The position numbers and the translations under genes were made by a program. Below are positions 37,197 to 49,883 of a DNA stretch of 64,000 bases, in pieces (the first letter of the stretch is position 1; each line of letters begins with the position of its first letter). The notes beneath the pieces are model-generated. The model was given only the letters and a program-made list of their open reading frames with translations, had not been told where the DNA came from and searched no databases. The stretch comes from Protoeuglena noctilucae (Eukaryota): contig OY253673.1 of the NCBI GenBank assembly GCA_958009085.1, positions 248,001-312,000 on the forward strand, in the 5' to 3' direction.

Positions 37197-39322
37197 TCAG
37201 CGCTCCTCGATTTGGGGGAGGTCCATGATGGCCAGCATCGCCTCGCGCGGGGTCACGTGGCCGTCGAGGATTTGCGCCACGGCCGTGAGGACGGGCAGCT
37301 GCACCCGGTACTCGTAGGCCAGCTTCACGACCACGCGAGCCGTGGCCACGCCCTCTGCGACCTGCGACATGGACCCGAGGATGTCATCGAGGGCCTCGCC
37401 GCGGCCCAGGCGCAGGCCGACGCTGCGGTTGCGGCTGAGGCTCCCGTAGCACGTCAGCATGATGTCCCCCAGCCCCGAGATGCCGGAAACAGTCGCGGCC
37501 TTGGCCCCCATGCGCTCCGCCAGCCACCGAATCTCCATGGTCCCCTGCGCCGTCACCGCCGCGGTCGCGTTCAGGCCCAGGCCCATGCCATCCACGATCC
37601 CCGCCGCAATCGCCAGCACGTTCTTCAGGGCCCCCGCGATCTCCACCCCCGTCACGTCCGTCGTGCTCGACACGCGCATGTACGGCGACGAGAACAGCCG
37701 CTGCGCCCGGCGGATCAACGCACGGTCCCGCGACGCCACCACCAGCGCCGTCGGGCGCATCTGCGGGCGCAAGGGGCGTCGTGCGTCCTGCCTCGCTCCC
37801 GGGCGCCCGAGCATCTCAGCGGCGCAGTTCCACCCCGCTGGTGATGCACTGGATGCACTCCTCTCACCTCCATGACCTCCCTCGCGAAGGACGGGCCCGA
37901 CAGGAAGGCGCAGGGCTGCTTGCGGCCCAGGGCGGACGGAATGACGTCCGCCATCGTGAGGCCTGACTCCACCTCGAGTCCTTTGGACAGGCACACGATG
38001 GGCAGGTCGGGCGGCACCAAGGCAGAGATGCCTTGGAGGAAGGCCCGCGAGTGCTGCACGGGGACGGCGTGGATGGCCAGCTGCGCGCCCTCGATGGCGT
38101 CCTTCGGGGAGGTCGTCGCCGACACGTTGGGTGGCAGGGTGAAGTCCGACAGGTAGCGCGTGTTGCAATGCCGCTCGTTGATGTCCCGGCACAGCTCGGC
38201 GTCCCGGAGGAGGCAGACGACGCGGAGGCTGGGCACTTTTTTAGCCAAAGAGCTCGCCATCGCCGTCCCGAAAGACCCGCCCCCGAAAACCACCACCTGT
38301 GGGGGGTGCGGGTGAGGTTCGTGGCACGTCGGCGCGACGGCGGAGCCGCAGCTGCCGCGCGGCGCTGGAACCGCGCGATCGACAGCTCGCGGAGCGGTCA
38401 CTGCATGGAGTGGCTCACCTTTTCCAGGCGGTCAAAGAAGCTGTCTGCCAGGGCTTCCTCCTGGGCACGAAGCGCCTTGCCCCAGCGCACCATGATGTTC
38501 CACGACCTCTGAGACGTCGATGCCAGGTCGACGCTCTCAAATATGTCGATCTTCTCACGCTCCCGCTCCCGTTCCTGCACCCTACCCTGTGCTGCCCAGG
38601 CTGCGCCACCTGCGTCCTCCTGCGCGGAGGCAGGGAGCGCCGCGTAGCTCATTACTTGCGCCGCGGAGCTGCGTGAGCACGCAGTCGATGACATAGCGCG
38701 CGCAAACACCGTCGGGCCCCGCACCTGCGGCCCGTCGGCACGCGCAGCCCCCCCCTCCCGTGCCACCACCGCTGCCGCGCCCCGGTCCCCCTCTCCGCTC
38801 CCTACGTGGGGTGCGGTTAGCTCTTTGGAATCCACCTGCGGAGAAGTCATCGGGAATTGACGCATGAGGCCCCGGTTGCCGAAGTGGACCTCGTGAGCCA
38901 ACACGCAGCCATCCACACCGCGCTGAAGACCCAGGTGCGAGCCGGACGCGGATACCGACGGATTCGCAAACCACGACAACGATTACGCAAGCGGGCAACC
39001 CCCGGACCCGCCCGCGCTCGCGGTCGCCGCGACGAAGGCGACGACCGCCGCCCGCCCAGCCCCTCGCCCAGCTCGCCTTGCTCCGTGCGATGCACTTGGA
39101 CCGCGTGTACAGAGGGCGCGTCTTATCATATGGGGCAGGAGCGCATGTGCATGGCAACGCAGGGACGCTGACATGGGACGATCCACCCCCCGCGGGCTCC
39201 CCTGCGCCCCGGCTGCATGAGGGACGGACCCATGCGGCTGATGACTGTATCCTTTCTCTACTGAGGGGCCGGAGACTCAAGCCCGGGGCGCCAGCGCAGG
39301 GCGCCAGGCCCCCCCCTGGCAT
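37197..39322 (-). CDS. NAD(P)H-dependent glycerol-3-phosphate dehydrogenase (GpsA-type, plastid GLY1/SFD1-like); start uncertain
   Basis: VVVFGGGSFGTAMA, IVCLSKGLE, LSGPSFAREV, GVEIAGALKNVLAIAAG, GLGDIMLTCYGSLSRNRSVG and VAEGVATA. Confidence 0.92.
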
Positions 39323-39626: not shown

Positions 39627-41089
39627 ATGGGCCTGTCCAGGGGCGTCCTCCGCCTCGTATATGCGGATGGGCTGCCGGTCCTCCGGATGCTCCACCTGGG
39701 CGAGGCTCTCTACCGCGCGGACACGGGTGAGCCTCTGGGCGGTGCTGGGTTTGGCGACCGGGGACGGCGCCCGGGGAAGCCTGCCGCACGGTCGACGCAG
39801 GCAACTGGTTTCTCATAAACAATGGAAAGTCTGGGCGTCACATCGTCATGGGGATTTCAGGCAAGGCGGAGGAGCTGGTGGACCTGGAGCGAGCCCGCTC
39901 TGCCGGGGTGCGCCTCATCCGGCGGTACAGGCGAGCAGGGCCACGCAATACACGATTCGTCTATAGCTGCGCATTCGAGCGCATTGGAGCGCTCGCCATC
40001 CTCGCCCGTGTCGCGCAGCGGCGGCGGGACGGTCGTGGTGGATCACAACACGGTCTTTGCTTCCCTCATCGTCAGCCCCGAGGCCGCGCCGGGTGAGACG
40101 CTGACCTCGCCTGTGCCTTTCGGGTTCTCGCTTGATCCCGCTGATGTCGAGCCGTTTACTGCGCCTTTGGCGAGGCAAAACCTCGTGCGCCCGGTTGGTG
40201 TCGACTTGCAGACGTGCAACCGTTCCCCGAGCACATCATGCGCTGGTCCGAGGGCTTCTACCGCCCGGCCCTGGGTCACTTATCCCTGCCAGACACAGCA
40301 GGGACCCCAGGAACCCCCCAGCAGGGGTCCTTCCATCTCCGTGAAAACGACTACGTGATCGGGACGCGCAAGTTCGGGGGCAACGCGCAGGCGATATCCA
40401 AGGGCCGGTGGGTGCACCACACGAGCTTCCTGTGGGACTACGACTGCGACGCCATGGCCCTCCTCAGGCATCCCCGCCGCACACCCAAGTACCGGGACGG
40501 GCGCGACCACGAGGAGTTCGTGTGCCGGTGAGGGCTGGGCTGATACTCACGATGCAAGCCGTCTGAGAGTCGCCATGGAGTGCTCTTGACTGGCATGGTG
40601 AAAGGGCGGCTGTATCATCCTCGCAGCGTGAGAGGCACTCAGCGTTGGGCAGCCGTGTCTCGTCCCTGCTTGCGTGTTGTATTGGGCACCTCTGTAGTAA
40701 GCCCACCGCTTCTGCGCAGGCTCTCGTCCGTGATGGCTGACCGGTCCCAGTTCGTCTCAAGTCTGAAGCGGCTGCCGGGCCTGGCGGGGTGGCAAGTGGA
40801 GGAGGTCGGGGTGGAGGAGGCGAGGAGCAGGGCCGCTGGGTGGATGTGGCATGGCACTAGCACACGCGTGTGCCTGCCGACTTGTCGCATCTCACACGTT
40901 CCTTTCTGTCAAAGTGCATCATGCGGTCGGTTACTAAACCCGCAGCTGCGCATGTCCCCCACGCAGGCGGAGGGATGGGTGCTGGGGCGCCGCCATTTGC
41001 GGAGTACGCGGGAGGTGGAGATGCTTCCAGGCAACCGTACAAGGGAGGGCGCTAGCGTCATTGTGGGGGGTGGCGAGCCCGGCACGTGA
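39627..41089 (+). CDS. Biotin/lipoate protein ligase family protein (LplA-like catalytic domain)
   Basis: LHLGEALYRAD, IVMGISGK, RRYSGGGTVVVD (restored across GC-AG intron 39931-40018), RKFGGNAQ, HHTSFLWDY and PKYRDGRDHEEF. Confidence 0.9.
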
Positions 41090-41536
41090 CCGCGGATCGT
41101 GGAGAGTGGGGGTTTGAAAGAGCACAACGTCACATGCACGCTTCACGTCGAACACCACAGGTGCAAACGGCGAGGAGTTGGCGAGGGAAGGGAGCGGCAC
41201 TAAGGTCAGCCGACAGCTGCCGTAAGCTTGGCCAGATGGACAGCACGTCAATAGCTGCGGACCAAGCCAAAGCCGCTGGGTGGCTGGCCCCTACCGCGAC
41301 CGCTGCACGGGTGGCACGGGCAGCCTCGCTGGGGGTTCCCGCACGTCCCTCGTCGCACTCTTACTGGCGACGGTTTGCGTCGCAGAGGCACTCTGCGTAC
41401 AAGGGAGGGAGGGAGGCTCGGAGGGCTTCACGCTAGCGCACTCAACCAGGGGCGTTGGCATGAACTGGCTTAGCACAGAAACAACATCTTCGGATCATCG
41501 ACATAACGCAGTTCGTCAGGGTGAGGCTCAGGAGGG

Positions 41537-42977
41537 TTAGTGAACATCCACGGCTCTGCTGGTCGCCTGGTCGCGGTGGGACTGGTAATCCTCCGGCATC
41601 ATCACTGCCCGCGTCACGGGCATCAACACGGCCTCCTTGACCGATGGCTGGTGCACGAGGTCGAAGGTAATAACCTCCATGTCGTCCATGACCTCAAAGT
41701 CACCCGTGTCCAGGCGTCTCACTGCCAGAGAAGAGGCGGAGAGGAGGAGAAACCATGGGCGCTTCAACCACTGCGACATGTGTGGCATGGGCGAGCACCA
41801 TCCTACCCAGCCGCTGCACAGCCCTGCCGGGTACATTCCAGACCACAGGGCAGACCAAAAACCCAGCCGGGCAGACCTTAAGCCCCGCCAGGCACCAAAA
41901 CACGCAGGCGCATCTGAGACCATGGCGGTGGCATCAACAGCAGCCCTCACGTGAGGCCCACGTGCGGATGCTGATACCGATGAGCTTGCCCTCCTTGAGC
42001 CTGTCGTAAACCTCTCTGCCCCGCTTGCTCTTGAGCAGCACCTCCACCATGACTACCAGCGCGTCGCCCTCCCATCGCACGCTCACCACCTCATGGCTCA
42101 CCAAGGACAGCCTGCGAGTGCAGCGATACAGAGCTCATTTGTTCGACACTCACAGCTGCGGACGATGCGCTCCGATCTTATAGCTATACGTCCCACTCGC
42201 ACCCCATGAGCCTGTCCGGAACGCCCGCCCGCTTCTCATGTCACGCGCAGCTGTCGACCGCAGCGGCCAAAGCAGCCCCCACACTCACTTGAGGCTGCAG
42301 TAGCGCTTGCGGTCGTCGTAGGGAGGGTGCTCTAACTCGCCCTTGAGGAAAGGCCTGTCTGCCGGGCTGCCGTCATCTCCCTGCCCACTCGGCCCCGGCG
42401 CCCAGTTGTCAGCCGTCTTGTTCTGCCGGTTGTCCAAATACCTGCGAGGTGATCAGAATAAAAGCGTCGTATAAGCGTCATAATCGCACGCCCCAATCTC
42501 TCCTGCCCAAATCTCTGGGCAGCCGACATGGGCCCATGTAACTGAGAGGCCATGCGCATGCGCATTGGCCTTTTGCAAGGGTGATCGTGGAGTCTGTCAC
42601 GGCCCGCACCTGAGCACTGCGCTGGACACGATGTCCCTGGGATACACGCGGCTGTTCAACGTGGGCTTCTCGACGACCAGCGCCAGTCCCTCCAAAAAGA
42701 GGCGGCCGTCGTTCTCCTGGAGGCTCCGCTTGAGCCGCCGGACGTTGTACTGCGAGCCAAAGCAGGGTCTTGCAACGTGAGAGTAGTAAGGGAGCTCGTG
42801 TGCCCCAGCGTTGCGCTAACCTTGAAAGAGTGGTCCTGAAAGTTGCTAAAGTGAAACATACCAGTCGTGAGCGCATGCAGAGCGACTCGCCTTGATGACC
42901 GCTCTGTCGCTGGGGTCCACTTGGGGAGCGGTCTCCGGCTCAGGGAAGGGCGTGTGCCGGCTGCACACGCAGCCCAT
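41537..42977 (-). CDS. T4 gp21-like phage prohead (capsid maturation) serine protease homolog with N-terminal MGCVCS lipidation motif; 5 exons, 241 aa
   Basis: Exons 42977-42891, 42749-42610, 42441-42289, 42111-41951 and 41721-41537 splice in phase to 726 nt. Motifs are LFLEGL, NSRVYPRDIV, KGELEHP, VSHEV...WEGD, KLIGISIRTWAS and EVMDDMEVITFDLVHQPS. Confidence 0.85.
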
Positions 42978-43386
42978 GGCTCGCTAGCACGAGGGAGGCG
43001 ATGACCGCGTTGTGCAACCTGGGGCGCAAGCTGAGCAGAGGATGGGAGGCCAGGGCGCGGGGATGCCGGCACAGATCGGTGGCAGGAGATGTACGAAGCT
43101 AGGAAACTCAGAAAGCCCACTTCAAGGGCATGGGGTGTGCGGCACACGACGGGGCAGTGGTGTCGAAATCGCACCGTGCCGTGGGAAAGGAGGGTCACGC
43201 TAAAGGGTGCGGTGAGGGGCTAGGTGAAAAGAAACGCGCGCATCGCGGCGCCGATACGGTAAAAGGAAACCACACAGATTGGTCAGTGTGCAATCCAGTG
43301 CACGGCCTGTCCCGGCGCTGGGAAGAGAGGCTGCCAGGCACAGCTACCACCAGGCAGGACGGCAAGTGCGGCGGAGCGGTCTCGCA

Positions 43387-45199
43387 TTACAGCTCGAGGA
43401 CTTCGTCATTGGCACCGCTCTGCATATCGAGCTCCATCTCAGTCAGGGACTGCCACTTGCTCCCCAGTCCCGGCAGTGACAGGTGCGCGTCTAGGCCCGG
43501 CGAGTCGGGCCCGGGCACCCCCAGGCGGCTCCGGCCGTGCGCGTGGCTCGCGTGGTGTGCCGCAGATATCGGCCGGTGCCCCTCGCTCCCCTCTGTCCCC
43601 GTCTCCAGCCCCTGGCTCATGTCCTCGGACAGCTGGATCATCTCGCTCGCCCCGCTCAGCCGAGGGATCTTGCTGCTCGGCTCAGAGATCAGGATGGATG
43701 CACTCTCATGTGGCGTGACCGCGACACCCGACCCGTCCGACGGGCGCACGAAGTCCGAGCGATGGGGCCCGCCGGGATCGACGCGCTTGAGCCGCGCGAA
43801 CCACCCGCGCACGCGGGCCTCGCCCGCAGGGGGCCGCGCGGGGCGCCGTTGCAGCCCCCGGGGCGCGCGCTCGCCCTCGCCCCCCGCGCCGCTCGGCTCG
43901 CCCTCGGCAAACGGCGGCTCCCGCGCTGGCGAGGCGCGGGCCCGGTCCCGCGACGCCTGTCGGCTGGGCTCCGGCGTCGCCTCCACCGCCCCCAGCAACG
44001 TGTCGTCCAGCACCACCGCCTCCTCAGCGTCCTCGGATGGCCGCAGCACGAAATGCCCCGTGTGGCTCATGGAGACGTGGAGGCTCTCGTGGGCGCTCTT
44101 GTCGCCGCCGCAGCAGTGCTCGGGCAGCGCCGTGAGGGCGCAGGAGCGGGAGACGGTCTCTATCGCCTCGGGAACGCTCGGGGCCTCGCTGTCGCCCCGG
44201 TCGCGGAGGCGAGGGAGGGTCCGGTCGTCCTCGGACCCGACGCTCTCGGCAAGGTCGACCGAGTCGCGGCGCGCGCTGCTCACGAGCACCACGACCGTCG
44301 CGGTGTGCCTCAGCCCGTCGTCCGCCACGACCTCCCCAATGCGGCCCCCCGCGCTCAGGCGCCGGGGCTTGACGATCGCCGCGCGGGTGTCCTGGTCCCA
44401 GCCTGCACGCGAAAACAGTGGCGATGCCTTCGGACAAGGCGACCAGTCGGCCAGCGCACGGTGCACACATGCAGGTGTGCGCGTGAGAGTCTCACCTTCG
44501 CACACGAACACGGCAGTGTTGACCCCGAGCGCCAGCGCGGCCGCCTCTCCCAGCATCTGCTTCTCCGTCAGGCACACCACGCGTCGCCGCCCGTGCCCCA
44601 CGCCCACGCCCTTCCTGTGGAGCACAGCACAAGGCGGAGGTTGGCAGCTGCAACCTGCTCAATCGGCAGTCCACCCAGCACAGTGGCGACGATAGGGCCA
44701 TCGCTTGCGGCCCCGCTCCGCTCCGACTGGAGAAGCAGGCCCGGGCAGCGGCAGCGCTCACGTGGGCTTGGCGGTGGGGCCGTGGGTCGCGGAGCAAGAG
44801 AGGACCGGGGAAGCGCCGTCCAGACCCGCGAGACCGTTCCTTAGCAGCGACTTTGCCACGGCTACGATGTAGACGCGCGGGACGGACTCCAGGAGCCTCG
44901 CATTGTAGTGATCCAGGTGGCTGGGCGACAGGGTCACGAGCTGCATGGCCGACAGGGACGTCAGCTGCGGCGGGAGAGAGCGGGTCGGGCGGCTCGGCGG
45001 CTGCGTGACGCGTGCGGCAAAACCGGACGGCGGCGAGCGGGGCGCGCCATCACACCTGGGCGTGCGACAGCCTCCCGAGACGGTCGGGAGGCAGGGTCAA
45101 GATGTCGGCGGCAGAGAGTTTGGCGAGGTAAGCCGGATCCACGCTCTTCGCTCCGCGCGAAGCGAGCTGTGCAACTGTCTCGACGGCCGCCGACGCCAT
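43387..45199 (-). CDS. Protein of unknown function: N-terminal short Leu-rich repeats, long Ser/acidic disordered C-terminus; 4 exons
   Basis: In-phase GT-AG splicing gives MASAAVETVAQ...LSHAQ / LTSLSAMQLV...AKPT / KGVGVGHG...VFVCE / GWDQDTRAAIV...NDEVLEL*. I do not recognise a family. Confidence 0.65.
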
Positions 45200-46284
45200 G
45201 GTGCCGATCGGGCCGGACTGCGCGGGGCAGTGGGCTCCCGACCGTCACTTCGGCGGCAGGTAGTGCCGGCGCGGGCCGCCGGGTCCAGGGCGCGGTGGGG
45301 CTCGCGTTCTCTTGGCTTCCTCACCTACTCAAAAGACCGCAGCGAGGTCCTCCTTTCCAGGATGCCTGGAGGTGCGAGGGCCAGGACCCGTCGCCGGGCA
45401 CAGCAACGCCGTGTCGAGAGGGGGGTCTCTCTGGTCTGATTAGGGTCTCGATGCAAAAGGAAAACGGAAACGCTACCAGTAAATCGATTTCCCGCCCAAA
45501 AAACGGCCCCTGGTTGCGACGGAAATGTGTCGCTTCCAGGGCGAGATGTGCGGGACCGCCAGCCCGCAAAGTACGTGGCCCCTGCGCACCTGTCAGCGAG
45601 GAGAGGGGATCTGAACCCAACACGTGCGGGAAAGGGGCTGGGCAACGCGCGAATCGTGACCGTTCCTACTCTCGGCCGTGGTGGAGAGCGACGGGATGGG
45701 AGAAGAAGCGAGGGAACGCGGACATGCGTAACAACGACCTTCATCAAAACGCAGCGGCATGAGATTCCCCACAGTGTTGATTTTCTAAGATGTCAGAAAA
45801 GTGCGGCGGTGAAACTCTCGGGAGCGCCGGCATCGGTCGGCTCCCATGCGTGTCCAGCGCCGTCAATTCTGCGGATTTGGCACGCCTGGTTATCAAAAAG
45901 GTTCCGTCTCTTTCTTCTCGCGCCCGTAGACTTGAGGCAGCTCGGGCTTGGTGTCCCTGGGAGCCGTCCGTCGAATGGGGAGGAGTTTCGGCGGGCTTGA
46001 TCATCAGCCATGAGCTTGGCCGCCGCAGCCCGCGGATCGGCGGTCGTTGGGGGTGGCCACGAGAGGAGGGGCAGGAACTTGAAATGGGGGCGGGAGCGGA
46101 CGGCGTCTCGGCAGGTCCTGACGGGGTCGACGTCCAGGGGAATGTGTGTGCGGTCGAGGGCATCCACCCTCGTCGCTCGCGTCGTCCCCAAGGTGACGAT
46201 GCTGGGACCGGGTCGGGGACGGAGGCTCCTGCGATGCCGGGGATTGGAGCGTCGGCCTGACCCCGCCTGATCGGAGATGCTTGC

Positions 46285-49200
46285 ATGAAGGCACCGTTGC
46301 GATCCTTGCACTGCTTCTCAGCTACGCGCGCGGCGCGGGCGGATGGTGTGTGGGATGGGCTCCACGCTGCGCGATCATGGGCAGCCCGCTCCCCTCGCCC
46401 CGCCACGACGGCCGCTTCGCAGAATTTAGCTCGCGATCTACATTCTTCCCCGCATAGCCATCCCTCCCGCGGCTCGCTCACCTCCCCGCGCGGGCTGCGA
46501 TGGTTTGTCTTGCGTCCATCGGTGCCCCGCTGCGCGGAACAGCGCTCCCGGCGCTCCCGGTCCCCGCAGGCGAACTCCGAGGGCATCGTGGTCCCGCTGG
46601 ATTACTACAAGATCCTCGGCGTCACGCGGATGTCGTCCCCCGACGCGGTGCAGCGGGGCTACCGGGCAGCCATCGAGAATCCCATCGACGCGGGTGCGTG
46701 TCTGCCGACGGAGAGCACACTCTCCGGCACGACTCACTGCGTGCCCGGGAGTCCAGACGATGAGGTCCAGATCCTGCCCACAACCGCGTCTCCGTGCCTA
46801 CCCCGCCATTGCAGGGTACTCGGACCAGGCCCTCCGCCTGCGCGAGGCGATCCTTACGGAAGCGTGCCAGGTGTTGTCCAGCCGGGAGCTGAAGGCCACG
46901 TATGACGCGGCGTACCAAATGGGCCGGGCGGGTGAGGGGCGTGACGGCTGCCCCGCTCAAGCGCTCCGTCCTCGGAACTGCCACCCTTCTACCTGTGCAC
47001 ATCCCGCGCCCGCTGCTCGCGCAGGGGATATCGACGTGTCCCTCGACCAGCTCCCGGGCGCCCTGGTGCTGCTGCACGAGGTCGGGGAGCTGGAGGTCGT
47101 GATGGAGCTGGGGGACACGCTGCTCAAGGTGCGTCGCTCGTTGCTGGGTCTTAGTGGCGAGTTTTCCACTGGTTTTGTGCCGCGTCGGGCGTGGCCGCCT
47201 CACCTCGCCAGGCAGCCTGAGCAGCATCGAGGCATCGTGCGTTACTCCTGAGATATGGGGAGGCGCAACCCCACACCGGGCGACGGCCAACAATTGCCGT
47301 CGCTTCGCTGTTTGCGCAGGAGAACGTGCTGCCGTCGCTGACGCCCGACGTGGCCATCACGGTCGCCCTGGCGCACTGCGACATCGCCAGCCGGGTCATG
47401 TCCGGGTCCGGGGCTTCGGTGGAGGATGCGTACGAGGAGCTGGAAGCAGCCATCGCGACGCTGGTCAAGTACCGGGCCCCGAACGAGCAGCTCAAGAAGG
47501 GTGAGAGGGCAGGGAGCTGTGCTCGCTCACCGACCCGCACGCTCGCACTGCAGTAGATGGTCGATGCGACGTCGATGTTCCGTTGCTTGCGCAGACATCG
47601 CCGAGGCGCTGCTGAGCATGGCCCCCGACTACGCGACCACGATGCTGTCGAGGCCCATTGAGGACACCGCCTCGCGTGCCCGTGGGCTGAGGGTCCTGAA
47701 GCGACTCGCCTGGGGGCCCAACCTCGCGCCGGGCGTGCCCATCGTGCCCCGCGAGCGTGCTCAGGTGGTAGGGCCCCTCCAGGGCAGCCTCACGGCGGCC
47801 GAGGTGAGACGGCGAGCGAGTTAGCACAATGCGCTCCAGGACTTGTACTGGCATGCATGAGATGCCGTCTCACGATCACAGACAGGGATCTGTCTTGCCT
47901 TATCAATCTTCCCCGCTGCCCTTCTGTCTCTCCTCAGGTCCTGGACCTCTACTCGGCGGCACCCAAGACGTCCCTGGGGCTGGAGGACAAGTATGACGTG
48001 GCCCTGGCGCTCCTGGCGCAGGCGCTGGTGGATGCCAAGCCCCCGGTGCTGAACCGGGCAGCGGACCTCCTGGGGGCCGTGGCGACCGCCGACCTGGACC
48101 GCGGCCGCCGCGATACCGTGATCGTGGAGCTGGCCGTCGCCGAGCTGCTGCGCGGGGCGCCGGAGGCCTCCCTGGCCTGGCTGGGGTTCGCGGAGGCGCA
48201 GACGTCCCAGCAGCGGCAGGTCCTGCTGCGCGCGGGGATGGACGCGTCGATCCGGGAGTTCGTGCGCGAGAACAGCCCCGGGACTGACTACCTCACGGGT
48301 GCATGCACGCTGGTCGAGCGGTGGGTCAACGAGGTGCGTGCTTGTGCCGACGCGCATGTGCGTGATGGCTGGCAGTGCCCCGTGCTGGGCTGGGGTCGTT
48401 TTTGACTGCGGGCGGCGCTTACCCAGTCGCCTGGTCTGCACCGGCACGCGTGTCTGCGGGGCTGGCGACGGGGCAGCGTGAGCGTTCGTCCCTGCAGACG
48501 TTGGTCTCGGGCTTCCCGGAGCTCAAGGGCGCCACGTTCACGCTGGCCGACTGGTTCGACGACCCCAACGTCGCACAGGAGCTGCAGGCGATGCAGAGGG
48601 CACGCAACCTGGGCCTCACGCAGATCGCGTCCGCCGCCTCGGATGCCATTGGGTGCGTGGCGCGCAAAGAGGGGCGCCTATGGCCTGTGCGCCCCAGTCA
48701 ACCTCGTCACCCTTGCTTCACTCTCAGTACTATGGCCCCCGTCGCCTCGCTTGCAGGATGACGACGGACGCGGTGGCTGGGGTGCGCAAGGCCATCTCCT
48801 CGGCCATCTCCCGGATGTCCAAGCCGGGGACGCGCCCCGCGGGGACGGACGCCAAGCCCACCGCGCTGCCCAAGAGCGCGTCCCTCCGGCAGCGCATCAC
48901 GGGGGTGCTCAGCCCGGCGCCGGCCGAGCCCTCGGCCCCCGCGCGGCCCGGCGACGGCGTGCTGTCGCGCGAGGGCGCGGACGCGCAGCTGCGGGGGTAC
49001 GTGCGCGGCACGCGGCTGGAGGGCGTGGCCCTGCGCGGCGCCGTGTTTGCGCTGCTCACGGCTGGCGGGTACATGGTCGCCGCCAAGCAGGGCCTCGTGC
49101 CCCGCATCGGGCCCATGCCAGGCCACGTCCACACGGTCACCCCGGGCATCCCCGGGGGCCCCTCGGCCGTGGTGGTGCGGGACACGACCGTCCCAGCGGC

Positions 49201-49883
49201 GCCCTTCAAGCGCTCTCCGGCCCCGCAGCAGGAGTACACGCCGGTGAGGCTTCGCGAAGCCCACGTGTCGCTGGAGCAGTCCTCCGCATGTCTGCTATGA
49301 CAGGGTAGCAGCGTCGGGCGTCCATCGTTTGCTGGGATTGGCTTGCCCCTTGGGATGCACCGAGTGTGAGAGAGGCCACTGCCTGCCCACGCGCCCGCCG
49401 CAGGCCACGGGCAAGATGACGGCGGCGGTGGCGGAGCAGGTGGTTCGGCACTGGCAGCAGATCAAGGCGCTGGCGCTGGGGGGCACGCACGAGGTGCATC
49501 GGCTGGCGGACGTGCTGGACGGCCGCATGCTCCAGCAGTGGAAGGCGCGGGCGGAGGATGTGCGGACGCAGGGCTGGCACTGGGAGTACCGCGTGGGGAA
49601 GGTGGTGGTCGACTCAGGTGAGCGTGGGGTCGCGTGGGGCCTGTTGGTGTCATGGACCTGGACCGGCAATACCTGAGCAAGTACCCTTGCTGTGGCCTCC
49701 GCAGTGGAGGTGTCGTTAGACGGCGACCGCGCGATCGTGGAGGCGACGCTCGACGAGAGCGCGCAGCTGGTGGAGAACAACCAGGCGCTGGACGCTTACA
49801 AGAGCACGTACACGGCGCAGTACCAGATGATGCGCAAGGGGGGCCAGTGGAAGATCGTTGGCGGGAAGGTCATCTATCGATAG
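46285..49883 (+). CDS. ARC6: Plastid division protein ARC6/Ftn2
   Basis: J-like PLDYYKILGV, GYSDQALRLREAIL, LPGALVLLHEVGE, a TM segment GAVFALLTAGGYMV, and a C-terminal DUF4101-type region AEQVVRHWQQIKALALG...VEATLDESAQL...YKSTYTAQYQM..GGQWKI. Confidence 0.93.

Follow-up and report, generated by a model that had tools for sequence, protein, structure and literature searches.

Our study revealed that a 64,000-nucleotide stretch of the genome of the marine alga Protoeuglena noctilucae (contig OY253673.1 of assembly GCA_958009085.1, positions 248,001 to 312,000; hereafter the window) carries on its minus strand a spliced and expressed homolog of the S77 (gp21) prohead proteases, in which the residues aligned with the catalytic His and Ser are conserved. 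The protein begins with MGCVCS and is probably a cytosolic serine protease of the gp21/S77 fold, 241 aa long, which an N-terminal lipid anchor holds at the cytosolic face of a membrane. An N-terminal Cys-rich motif of the predicted acylation type, often MGCxxS, is the rule in the eukaryote-type clade of homologs to which this protein belongs. To our knowledge, gp21- and assemblin-type prohead proteases have been viewed as exclusively viral, acting within the closed procapsid.

A spliced and expressed homolog of the gp21 prohead protease

The reading frame encoding MGCVCSRHTPFPEPETAPQVDPSDRAVIK opens at a minus-strand ATG (42977-42975, context GCCATGG) and closes at 42891 as AAG/GCGAGT, placing a GC donor at 42890-42889, and the phase 0 junction with exon 2 carries the protein on into YNVRRLK. 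The exon model was built by inspection and from stop-to-stop open reading frames (ORFs) in a window whose G+C content ranges from 63 to 72 %. A word-index search using exon 4 alone found a database protein (P0002, 241 aa, from a 979-nt contig) that is identical to the product of the five-exon model (Table 1), including the segment MGCVCS…AVIK joined to YNVRRLK.

Splicing was observed directly in RNA contigs. The window was compared over 40800-43800 with contigs of three RNA runs, two from study P1 (X1, X4) and one from study P2 (X5), and with a DNA run (X6); the matching runs comprised four marine metatranscriptome runs of P1 (41-46 % of sampled words), one P2 run and DNA-type runs (100 %). 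Position 42891 was joined to 42749 in one contig each from X1, X4 and X5, with 141 nt skipped whose ends, on the strand of the gene, are GC..AG. All four coding introns were removed in X1 and X4 with 0 mismatches, as were introns 1, 3 and 4 in X5 contigs. The X6 run covered the stretch as a single unspliced piece, and the spliced form is therefore RNA rather than a processed DNA copy. The original prediction, made from the letters of the window, had placed an MGCVCS-encoding first exon before an in-phase GC donor (AAG/GCGAGT), and this was borne out by the three RNA contigs from the two studies. It had also named a possible in-frame 15-nt microexon (DHSFK) within intron 1, which gained no support from the RNA, being present in 0 of the 3 RNA contigs that cross this intron, although contigs drop rare variants and a rarely included form could be missed.

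Met1 is fixed by an in-frame TAG that precedes it by 9 nt, and as this stop is downstream of the acceptor used in a second form of the 5′ untranslated region (5′UTR), the same start applies to both 5′UTR forms. The sole upstream ATG belongs to an out-of-frame upstream ORF (uORF) of seven codons, found only in the unspliced 5′UTR form. It is highly improbable that the start codon or exon 1 has been mis-assigned and that the MGCVCS peptide is never made. The comparison drew on contigs only and not on raw reads, so that transcript 5′ ends and rare isoforms are invisible to it, and there are two 5′UTR forms; however, exon 1 is joined in frame to exon 2 in three RNA contigs, the in-frame stop is present in both forms, the next in-frame Met after Met1 lies far inside the protease domain, and exon 1 is conserved in two close relatives (metagenome locus L002 and protein P0047, see below). 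With the ATG at 42977, the upstream stop and exon 1 in RNA of two studies, Gly2 stands directly after the initiator Met at the N-terminus of the protein.

Two other accounts of this N-terminus were considered and are not favoured. The first 18 nt of the coding sequence (42960-42977) equal the start of a synthetic Lck-tag oligonucleotide given in excerpts of bioRxiv 10.1101/062729, and diverge from it afterwards. The copy in the window is intron-bearing and is present in environmental RNA, and the 18-nt identity most plausibly reflects G+C-rich codons used for one and the same peptide rather than contamination by Lck-tag DNA. A signal or transit peptide was set aside, by inspection only, as the N-terminal segment is acidic and Pro-rich and not hydrophobic.

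The family and fold of the protein were examined using Pfam, PHROG, PDB and structure prediction. The full protein matched Peptidase_S77 (PF03420) with 30.6 bits (cut-off 27, E 2.9e-7) and no other Pfam family, while single exons gave no Pfam match; three exons matched phrog_207 (head maturation protease) colinearly, and T4 gp21 (5JBL) was the sole, weak sequence match in the PDB. An AlphaFold2 model based upon a 22-sequence alignment had a mean pLDDT of 84 and a pTM of 0.79, with residues 1-20 (pLDDT 54-57) and 83-97 disordered. When this model was compared with the PDB by Foldseek, three 5JBL chains came out on top (E 1.3e-7, TM by target 0.71-0.74). The PF03420 score, the fold match to 5JBL and the spliced transcript together confirm the gene as the prohead-protease homolog that had been proposed.

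An alignment of P0002 with the T4 gene 21 product and 16 homologs (A1, 18 sequences) revealed that the columns of T4 His85 and Ser140 are invariant, corresponding to His114 and Ser174 of P0002. Excerpts of bioRxiv 10.64898/2026.03.04.709575 describe H85A/S140A as a catalytically dead gp21, and the triad is named as His, Ser and Asp, without T4 numbering, in the portion of PMC5694885 that treats it. Asp201 of P0002 aligns with T4 Asp168, the sole conserved Asp of that region, and we infer that it may be the third catalytic residue. Loss of the catalytic Ser was suspected when GVASRG of 5JBL was set against GISIRT, and was rejected: wild-type T4 reads GVSSRG, the first Ser of which is S140 and is conserved, and the 5JBL crystal chain appears to carry Ala at this position. 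Judged by these residues, the S77 domain appears catalytically competent.

It is quite unlikely that the gene is a catalytically silent viral remnant, either a membrane-bound scaffold or adaptor or a decaying endogenous relic. Such a remnant could be seen in the altered residue past the catalytic Ser in the near subclade (GIS-I/V-R-T vs GVSSRG) and in the disordered insertion at residues 83-97. However, the whole clade retains the conserved Asp and the two residues aligned with His85 and Ser140, the introns of the gene lie at apparently conserved positions, its expression is shown by contigs with 0 mismatches from marine metatranscriptomes of two studies, and it has cellular neighbours, with no other viral genes within ~6 kb.

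The N-terminal motif and the proposed membrane anchor

N-myristoyltransferase (NMT) substrates follow the pattern G-{EDRKHPFYW}-x(2)-[STAGCN]-{P} (PROSITE PS00008). The window protein fits this pattern with GCVCSR, and its Cys3 and Cys5 adjoin Gly2 at the same positions as in Lck. The N-terminus is thus consistent with the myristoylation-plus-palmitoylation type that the original prediction had assigned to it, and its first six residues are those of mouse Lck.

If this type is correct, Met1 would be removed co-translationally and Gly2 acylated by an N-myristoyltransferase, whose consensus the context G-C-V-C-S-R fits. Transient contact with a membrane would then allow DHHC palmitoyl-transferases to S-acylate Cys3 and Cys5, as in Lck, and the flexible linker of ~24 residues encoded by exon 1 would tether the S77 protease domain to the cytosolic leaflet. 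The lipid modifications, the membrane location, the protease activity and any substrates are in this account predictions from sequence.

An exhaustive, profile-free homolog search returned 512 proteins at E ≤ 1e-3, and the clade and motif counts given here use the best 150 of these 512, which are mutually related 50 %-identity representatives with automated start calls. Their N-termini include MGCGAS, MGACCS, MGCFSCS, MGCYLS, MGCQAS and MGAAASCC, alongside Cys-cluster starts that lack Gly2, such as MPFCCS, MRLWCC, MVFACC and MLKCFPCC. A FastTree phylogeny of the core domain (P0002 residues 40-224), rooted on T4 gp21, had 146 leaves, with P0001, P0006, P0008, P0047, P0048 and two rows below the length filters left out, and it placed P0002 in a clade of 59 leaves (support 0.83).

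An N-terminus was counted as complete when the sequence started with M and its N-x-x-R-x-Y strand lay at least 35 residues in, and P0002 itself was left out of the clade counts. Complete N-termini were available for 31 of the 58 other clade members; 25 of them have Cys within residues 2-12, 16 have at least two, and nine have Gly2, in every case together with Cys. Outside the clade there were 83 complete N-termini, among which Cys occurs in five, at least two Cys in one and Gly2 in four (Fisher's test, clade vs outside: p = 7e-15 for Cys, p = 1e-3 for Gly2), and the rows counted outside include two that resemble the eukaryote type, P0051 (MGVCVS) and P0052 (MFACCC). With alignment A4, homologs were obtained from 80 viral contigs of IMG/VR; all had complete N-termini, five with Cys and three with Gly2, and the eukaryote-type motif G-x-S-x-R-x-W (SRGW) was present in 0 of these 80. 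All 80 align to the eukaryotic protein P0010 only from residues 25-38 onward, and the viral homologs therefore lack the anchor segment.

Seventeen proteins of the set, the window protein among them, start with MG. The NMT pattern is fitted by all 11 of those that are eukaryote-type, with Ser6 in 10, and by none of the other six, which comprise three proteins of phage type, two truncated ones and P0093. Cys-rich or MGC N-termini are spread over all of the clade's main branches, with Gly2 in at least four separate ones; the motif is therefore an old feature of the family and not a novelty of the window gene, and the original prediction went too far in stating that the gene 'has acquired' it. The expectation that orthologs would conserve the motif was for the most part borne out, the cysteines being the conserved element (25/31); Gly2 is found in only 9/31 and, in the two closest relatives with a readable start, is followed by Phe (MGF…) or missing (MTWNCC). 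Across the family the common denominator is a set of potentially S-acylatable cysteines, with predicted myristoylation frequent but not universal.

The closest relatives allowed exon 1 to be compared in more depth. A word-index protein search returned only P0002 itself, and with alignment A2 it returned six proteins, one of them named; locus scans using P0002 alone found nothing in metagenome contigs or viral contigs, and three metagenome loci were found with a narrower alignment (A3). One of these, L002, is ~60 % identical over the domain. Its exon 1, MGFCDCLAGSHKPFPEPTWELEVDPVDKKAIK (MGFCDCLAGSHKPFPEP…KKAIK), is followed by a GT intron and then by YNKKRLKRSL, which is the same junction as in the window gene. 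P0047 begins MTWNCCGG…SDKKAIK, followed by an apparent in-frame intron read-through and then by YNKRRLK. The exon junction of the window gene recurs in L002 and P0047 (…AIK/YN…), and both the Cys pair of exon 1 and the linker motifs PFPE and D-x-K/R-A-I-K are conserved in L002 and P0047. With Gly2 in the minority and with the starts seen in L002 and P0047, myristoylation may be dispensable or lineage-specific.

P0002 falls within a divergent subclade with P0003, P0004, P0005, P0007, P0011, P0046 and P0080 (support 0.96). P0003, P0004, P0005 and P0007 are apparently translated genomic sequence, interrupted at the borders of the same exons, and are uninformative on the start. In these four and in L002, a break-off or a Pro-rich read-through was seen at the exon 1/2 and exon 4/5 borders, which suggests that the intron positions are conserved; P0005 seemingly has an extra intron within the region that matches exon 3. 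It was also seen that long eukaryote-type homologs (P0015, P0017, P0019 and P0020) have a second conserved region (…LDKLLLYSHY…) past the protease domain, the remainder of which (DREAHARDY onward) is found in P0017, P0019 and P0020 and is followed by low-complexity tails, and which the window protein does not have.

GAP-43 and PSD-95-type proteins are anchored by palmitoylation, and an anchor of S-acylation only is a possible, if considerably less probable, account of the window protein. The N-terminal Cys pair would then be palmitoylated and Gly2 would be incidental or optional, either unmyristoylated or myristoylated without consequence. Gly2 is missing from 16 of the 25 clade N-termini that contain Cys, as in the MPFCCS and MRLWCC starts listed above, and the closest relatives have MGFCDC, a poor NMT context, and MTWNCC. 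However, an incidental Gly2 would not lead one to expect that 11 of 11 eukaryote-type MG starts fit the pattern, nor that 10 of these 11 have Ser6. MGCVCS is also residues 1-6 of Lck, in which palmitoylation requires Gly2 myristoylation according to excerpts of PMC7655920.

A further alternative, which we regard as unlikely, is that the segment is a propeptide or regulatory element and not a lipid anchor, its cysteines serving in metal binding, redox sensing, a disulfide or a block of the active site. The catalytic centre of T4 gp21 is obstructed by the N-terminal region, and activation involves the loss of nine residues, as stated in the relevant excerpt of PMC9958956, and the linker motifs of exon 1 are conserved besides the cysteines. 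Against this, nearly every branch has its cysteines among the first 3-10 residues whereas the remainder of the segment varies, the co-occurrence of Gly2 and Ser6 is specific to NMT substrates, and the segment is predicted to be disordered and undocked on the domain (pLDDT 54-57).

Several points weigh against a lipid-anchored, active protease, which we nevertheless favour. Lipidation, membrane location and activity are each deduced from sequence, and Asp201 is put forward as a catalytic residue by its conservation only, while T4 Ser141 is replaced by Ile in P0002 (GISIR vs GVSSR). The N-termini of the homologs come from automated gene calls, and the sequences are related, so that the counts are not of independent events. 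Gly2 is present in a minority of the clade (9/31), and six of the 31 complete clade N-termini have no early Cys, although P0005 at least looks like intron read-through. Among the closest relatives, L002 starts with MGFCDC, with a Phe3 that is outside the NMT consensus, and P0047 starts with MTWNCC and has no Gly2.

Splice forms, genomic surroundings and origin

Two 5′UTR forms were seen in the RNA contigs. In X5, a contig carried 42 loose letters past 43021, a 30-letter consensus of which equals 45593-45622 exactly (0 chance matches expected), and the X4 contig likewise stops at 43021. At the other end of the gene, the alternative GC-AG intron of the X4 contig removes the last nine codons and the stop, and would give a 33-aa tail read from 41392 downward, whereas the X1 contig continues into the normal stop codon. 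The coordinates of all features are given in Table 1.

Table 1. Features of the prohead-protease homolog and its surroundings (positions in the window)
Feature	Position	Strand	Remarks
Gene, five coding exons	42977-41537	minus	product 241 aa
Exon 1, coding part	42891..42977	minus	putative MGCVCS acylation motif, then Pro-/acid-rich linker; 29 aa, phase 0
Intron 1	42750..42890	minus	GC-AG, 141 nt; RNA joint 42749/42891
Exon 2	42610..42749	minus	N-terminal helix and strand of the protease domain, residues 30-76 in part; phrog_207 positions 33-68
Exon 3	42289..42441	minus	disordered insertion (residues 83-97) and GELEHP; His114 codon 42329-42327
Exon 4	41951..42111	minus	GISIRTW; Ser174 codon 41972-41970
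Exon 5, coding part and stop	41537..41721	minus	coding part 41721-41540, stop codon 41539-41537; Asp201 codon 41662-41660
In-frame TAG	42984..42986	minus	9 nt 5′ of the ATG
Candidate 15-nt microexon GACCACTCTTTCAAG (DHSFK)	42821..42835	minus	within intron 1; AG and GT flanks present
Contiguous unspliced 5′UTR form	42978..43198	minus	with 7-codon uORF; X1 contig record 2
Alternative upstream non-coding exon 0, 3′ end	45590..45622	minus	CAG/GTGCGC at 45590/45589
5′UTR intron, GT-AG	43019..45589	minus	~2.57 kb; single X5 contig; junction ambiguous by CAG
Alternative intron, GC-AG	41393..41566	minus	starts 27 nt before the stop codon; joint 41392/41567, X4 contig only
NAD-dependent glycerol-3-phosphate dehydrogenase	37200-38431	minus	one ORF each for the N- and C-terminal domains
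ARC6-like plastid-division protein	46430-49673	plus	Arm_PDR, ARC6 and ARC6-like_IMS domains in three ORFs

Parts of the 5′UTR intron (43039-43800) are also covered by RNA contigs of X1 and X4. Long ORFs of 530, 449 and 423 aa lie in this intron on both strands (43103-44841); none of the ORFs at 43.1-44.8 kb gave a Pfam match. These observations may reflect a nested gene, intron retention or chance ORFs in GC-rich sequence. The distal 5′UTR exon lies ~0.8 kb from the opposite-strand ARC6-like gene, a spacing at which one bidirectional promoter region might serve both.

Pfam matches among the 48 ORFs of at least about 140 aa at 36-50 kb were to cellular families only. The families are those of glycerol-3-phosphate dehydrogenase, whose gene an intron probably divides, and of ARC6. 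Matches to capsid, portal or terminase families were absent from these ORFs, and an endogenous viral island was rejected as an explanation, there being no viral Pfam match among them.

The origin of the eukaryote-type proteins was examined by searching P0002 against 50,697 phage records using tblastn. This matched 268 records, 129 of them named Synechococcus, Prochlorococcus or Cyanophage; identity to the phage proteins was ~25-28 % among the matches listed, and the top ones are annotated as head maturation or prohead protease. Eukaryotic proteins of the P0010 type are 46-56 % identical to proteases of viral contigs. Eukaryota make up 75 % of the protein atlas cluster, and among its four members of known phylum Chlorophyta are the commonest; taken with ARC6 and the marine RNA runs, this indicates an alga of the green lineage. 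An atlas search with P0030 gave no taxon for its branch. In the best explanation, the ancestry of the eukaryote-type S77 clade goes back to proteases of the kind found in T4-like phages.

T4 gp21 is self-activating, cleaving away its N-terminal peptide, and the eukaryotic anchor may therefore sit on an equivalent propeptide. At the start of the domain, L002, P0047 and the window protein keep an L-x-E triplet (SL[QAK]EN) in place of the I-K-E-N of marine phage homologs, and it seems to resemble the cleavage preference of gp21. A reading to which we give only a low probability is that a phage-type protease was captured long ago by eukaryotes and became a family of lipid-anchored proteases at the cytosolic membrane face, in which self-cleavage of the propeptide would activate the enzyme and free it from the membrane, a one-shot switch from membrane to cytosol.

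Significance and comparison with known systems

The window gene is a cellular, intron-bearing and expressed prohead-type protease in a marine alga, with its catalytic-aligned residues kept, and it is a member of a sizeable eukaryote-type clade that almost always has a predicted N-terminal fatty-acylation signal, which is absent in the phage versions. This points to a virus capsid enzyme that has been domesticated for membrane-associated proteolysis and, if the anchor does sit on a self-cleaved propeptide, to a new type of membrane-release switch. That S77 domains occur in eukaryotes is already known from automatic database annotations; what is new is the conserved putative anchor motif, together with evidence for a working spliced gene. 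The literature searched, with most subscription journals outside its coverage, contained neither a study of eukaryotic S77 proteins nor an acylated prohead-protease homolog. The motif also offers an experimental handle.

The herpesvirus assemblins (Peptidase S21; HCMV, VZV, EBV and HSV) have a distantly similar fold (Foldseek E 1e-3 to 1e-2), but a TM of 0.29-0.37, an rmsd of 7-10 Å and no match at the level of sequence family place the window protein outside this group. T4 gp21 (5JBL) and its homologs in T4-like phages, notably cyanophages, share with it the Pfam family, the fold, and the residues aligned with His85 and Ser140 together with a conserved Asp. Unlike gp21, however, the window gene is nuclear, has spliceosomal introns and cellular neighbours, and, judged by the 48 ORFs around it, is not part of a head-assembly module. 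Its product differs from the phage proteins by an extra N-terminal exon of 29 residues with the predicted acylation motif and by the disordered insertion at residues 83-97, and the window protein and its eukaryote-type relatives have G-x-S-x-R-x-W where phage proteins have GISSRG[LM]G.

Among cellular proteins, those named 'Prohead core protein serine protease domain-containing' in eukaryotes are known by automatic annotation only, and P0002 lies in a divergent subclade with respect to them. The only named eukaryotic homolog obtained was a hypothetical protein of Bryopsis sp. KO-2023 (BSKO_06904, P0153), which belongs to the same eukaryote-type family and starts with MVECVT, with an early Cys.

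The anchor itself is most readily compared with the SH4-type anchor of mouse Lck (residues 1-10, MGCVCSSNPE), the first six residues of which are identical to those of the window protein. Excerpts of two preprints describe this decapeptide as a membrane-targeting tag (bioRxiv 10.1101/160374, 10.1101/062729), and Gly2 of Lck is myristoylated, a step required for palmitoylation of Cys3 and Cys5 and hence for stable binding to the plasma membrane, as set out in part of PMC7655920. There is no homology past the motif, so that the likeness to Lck is a convergent one, in which a short signal of the same predicted kind stands before an unrelated catalytic domain.

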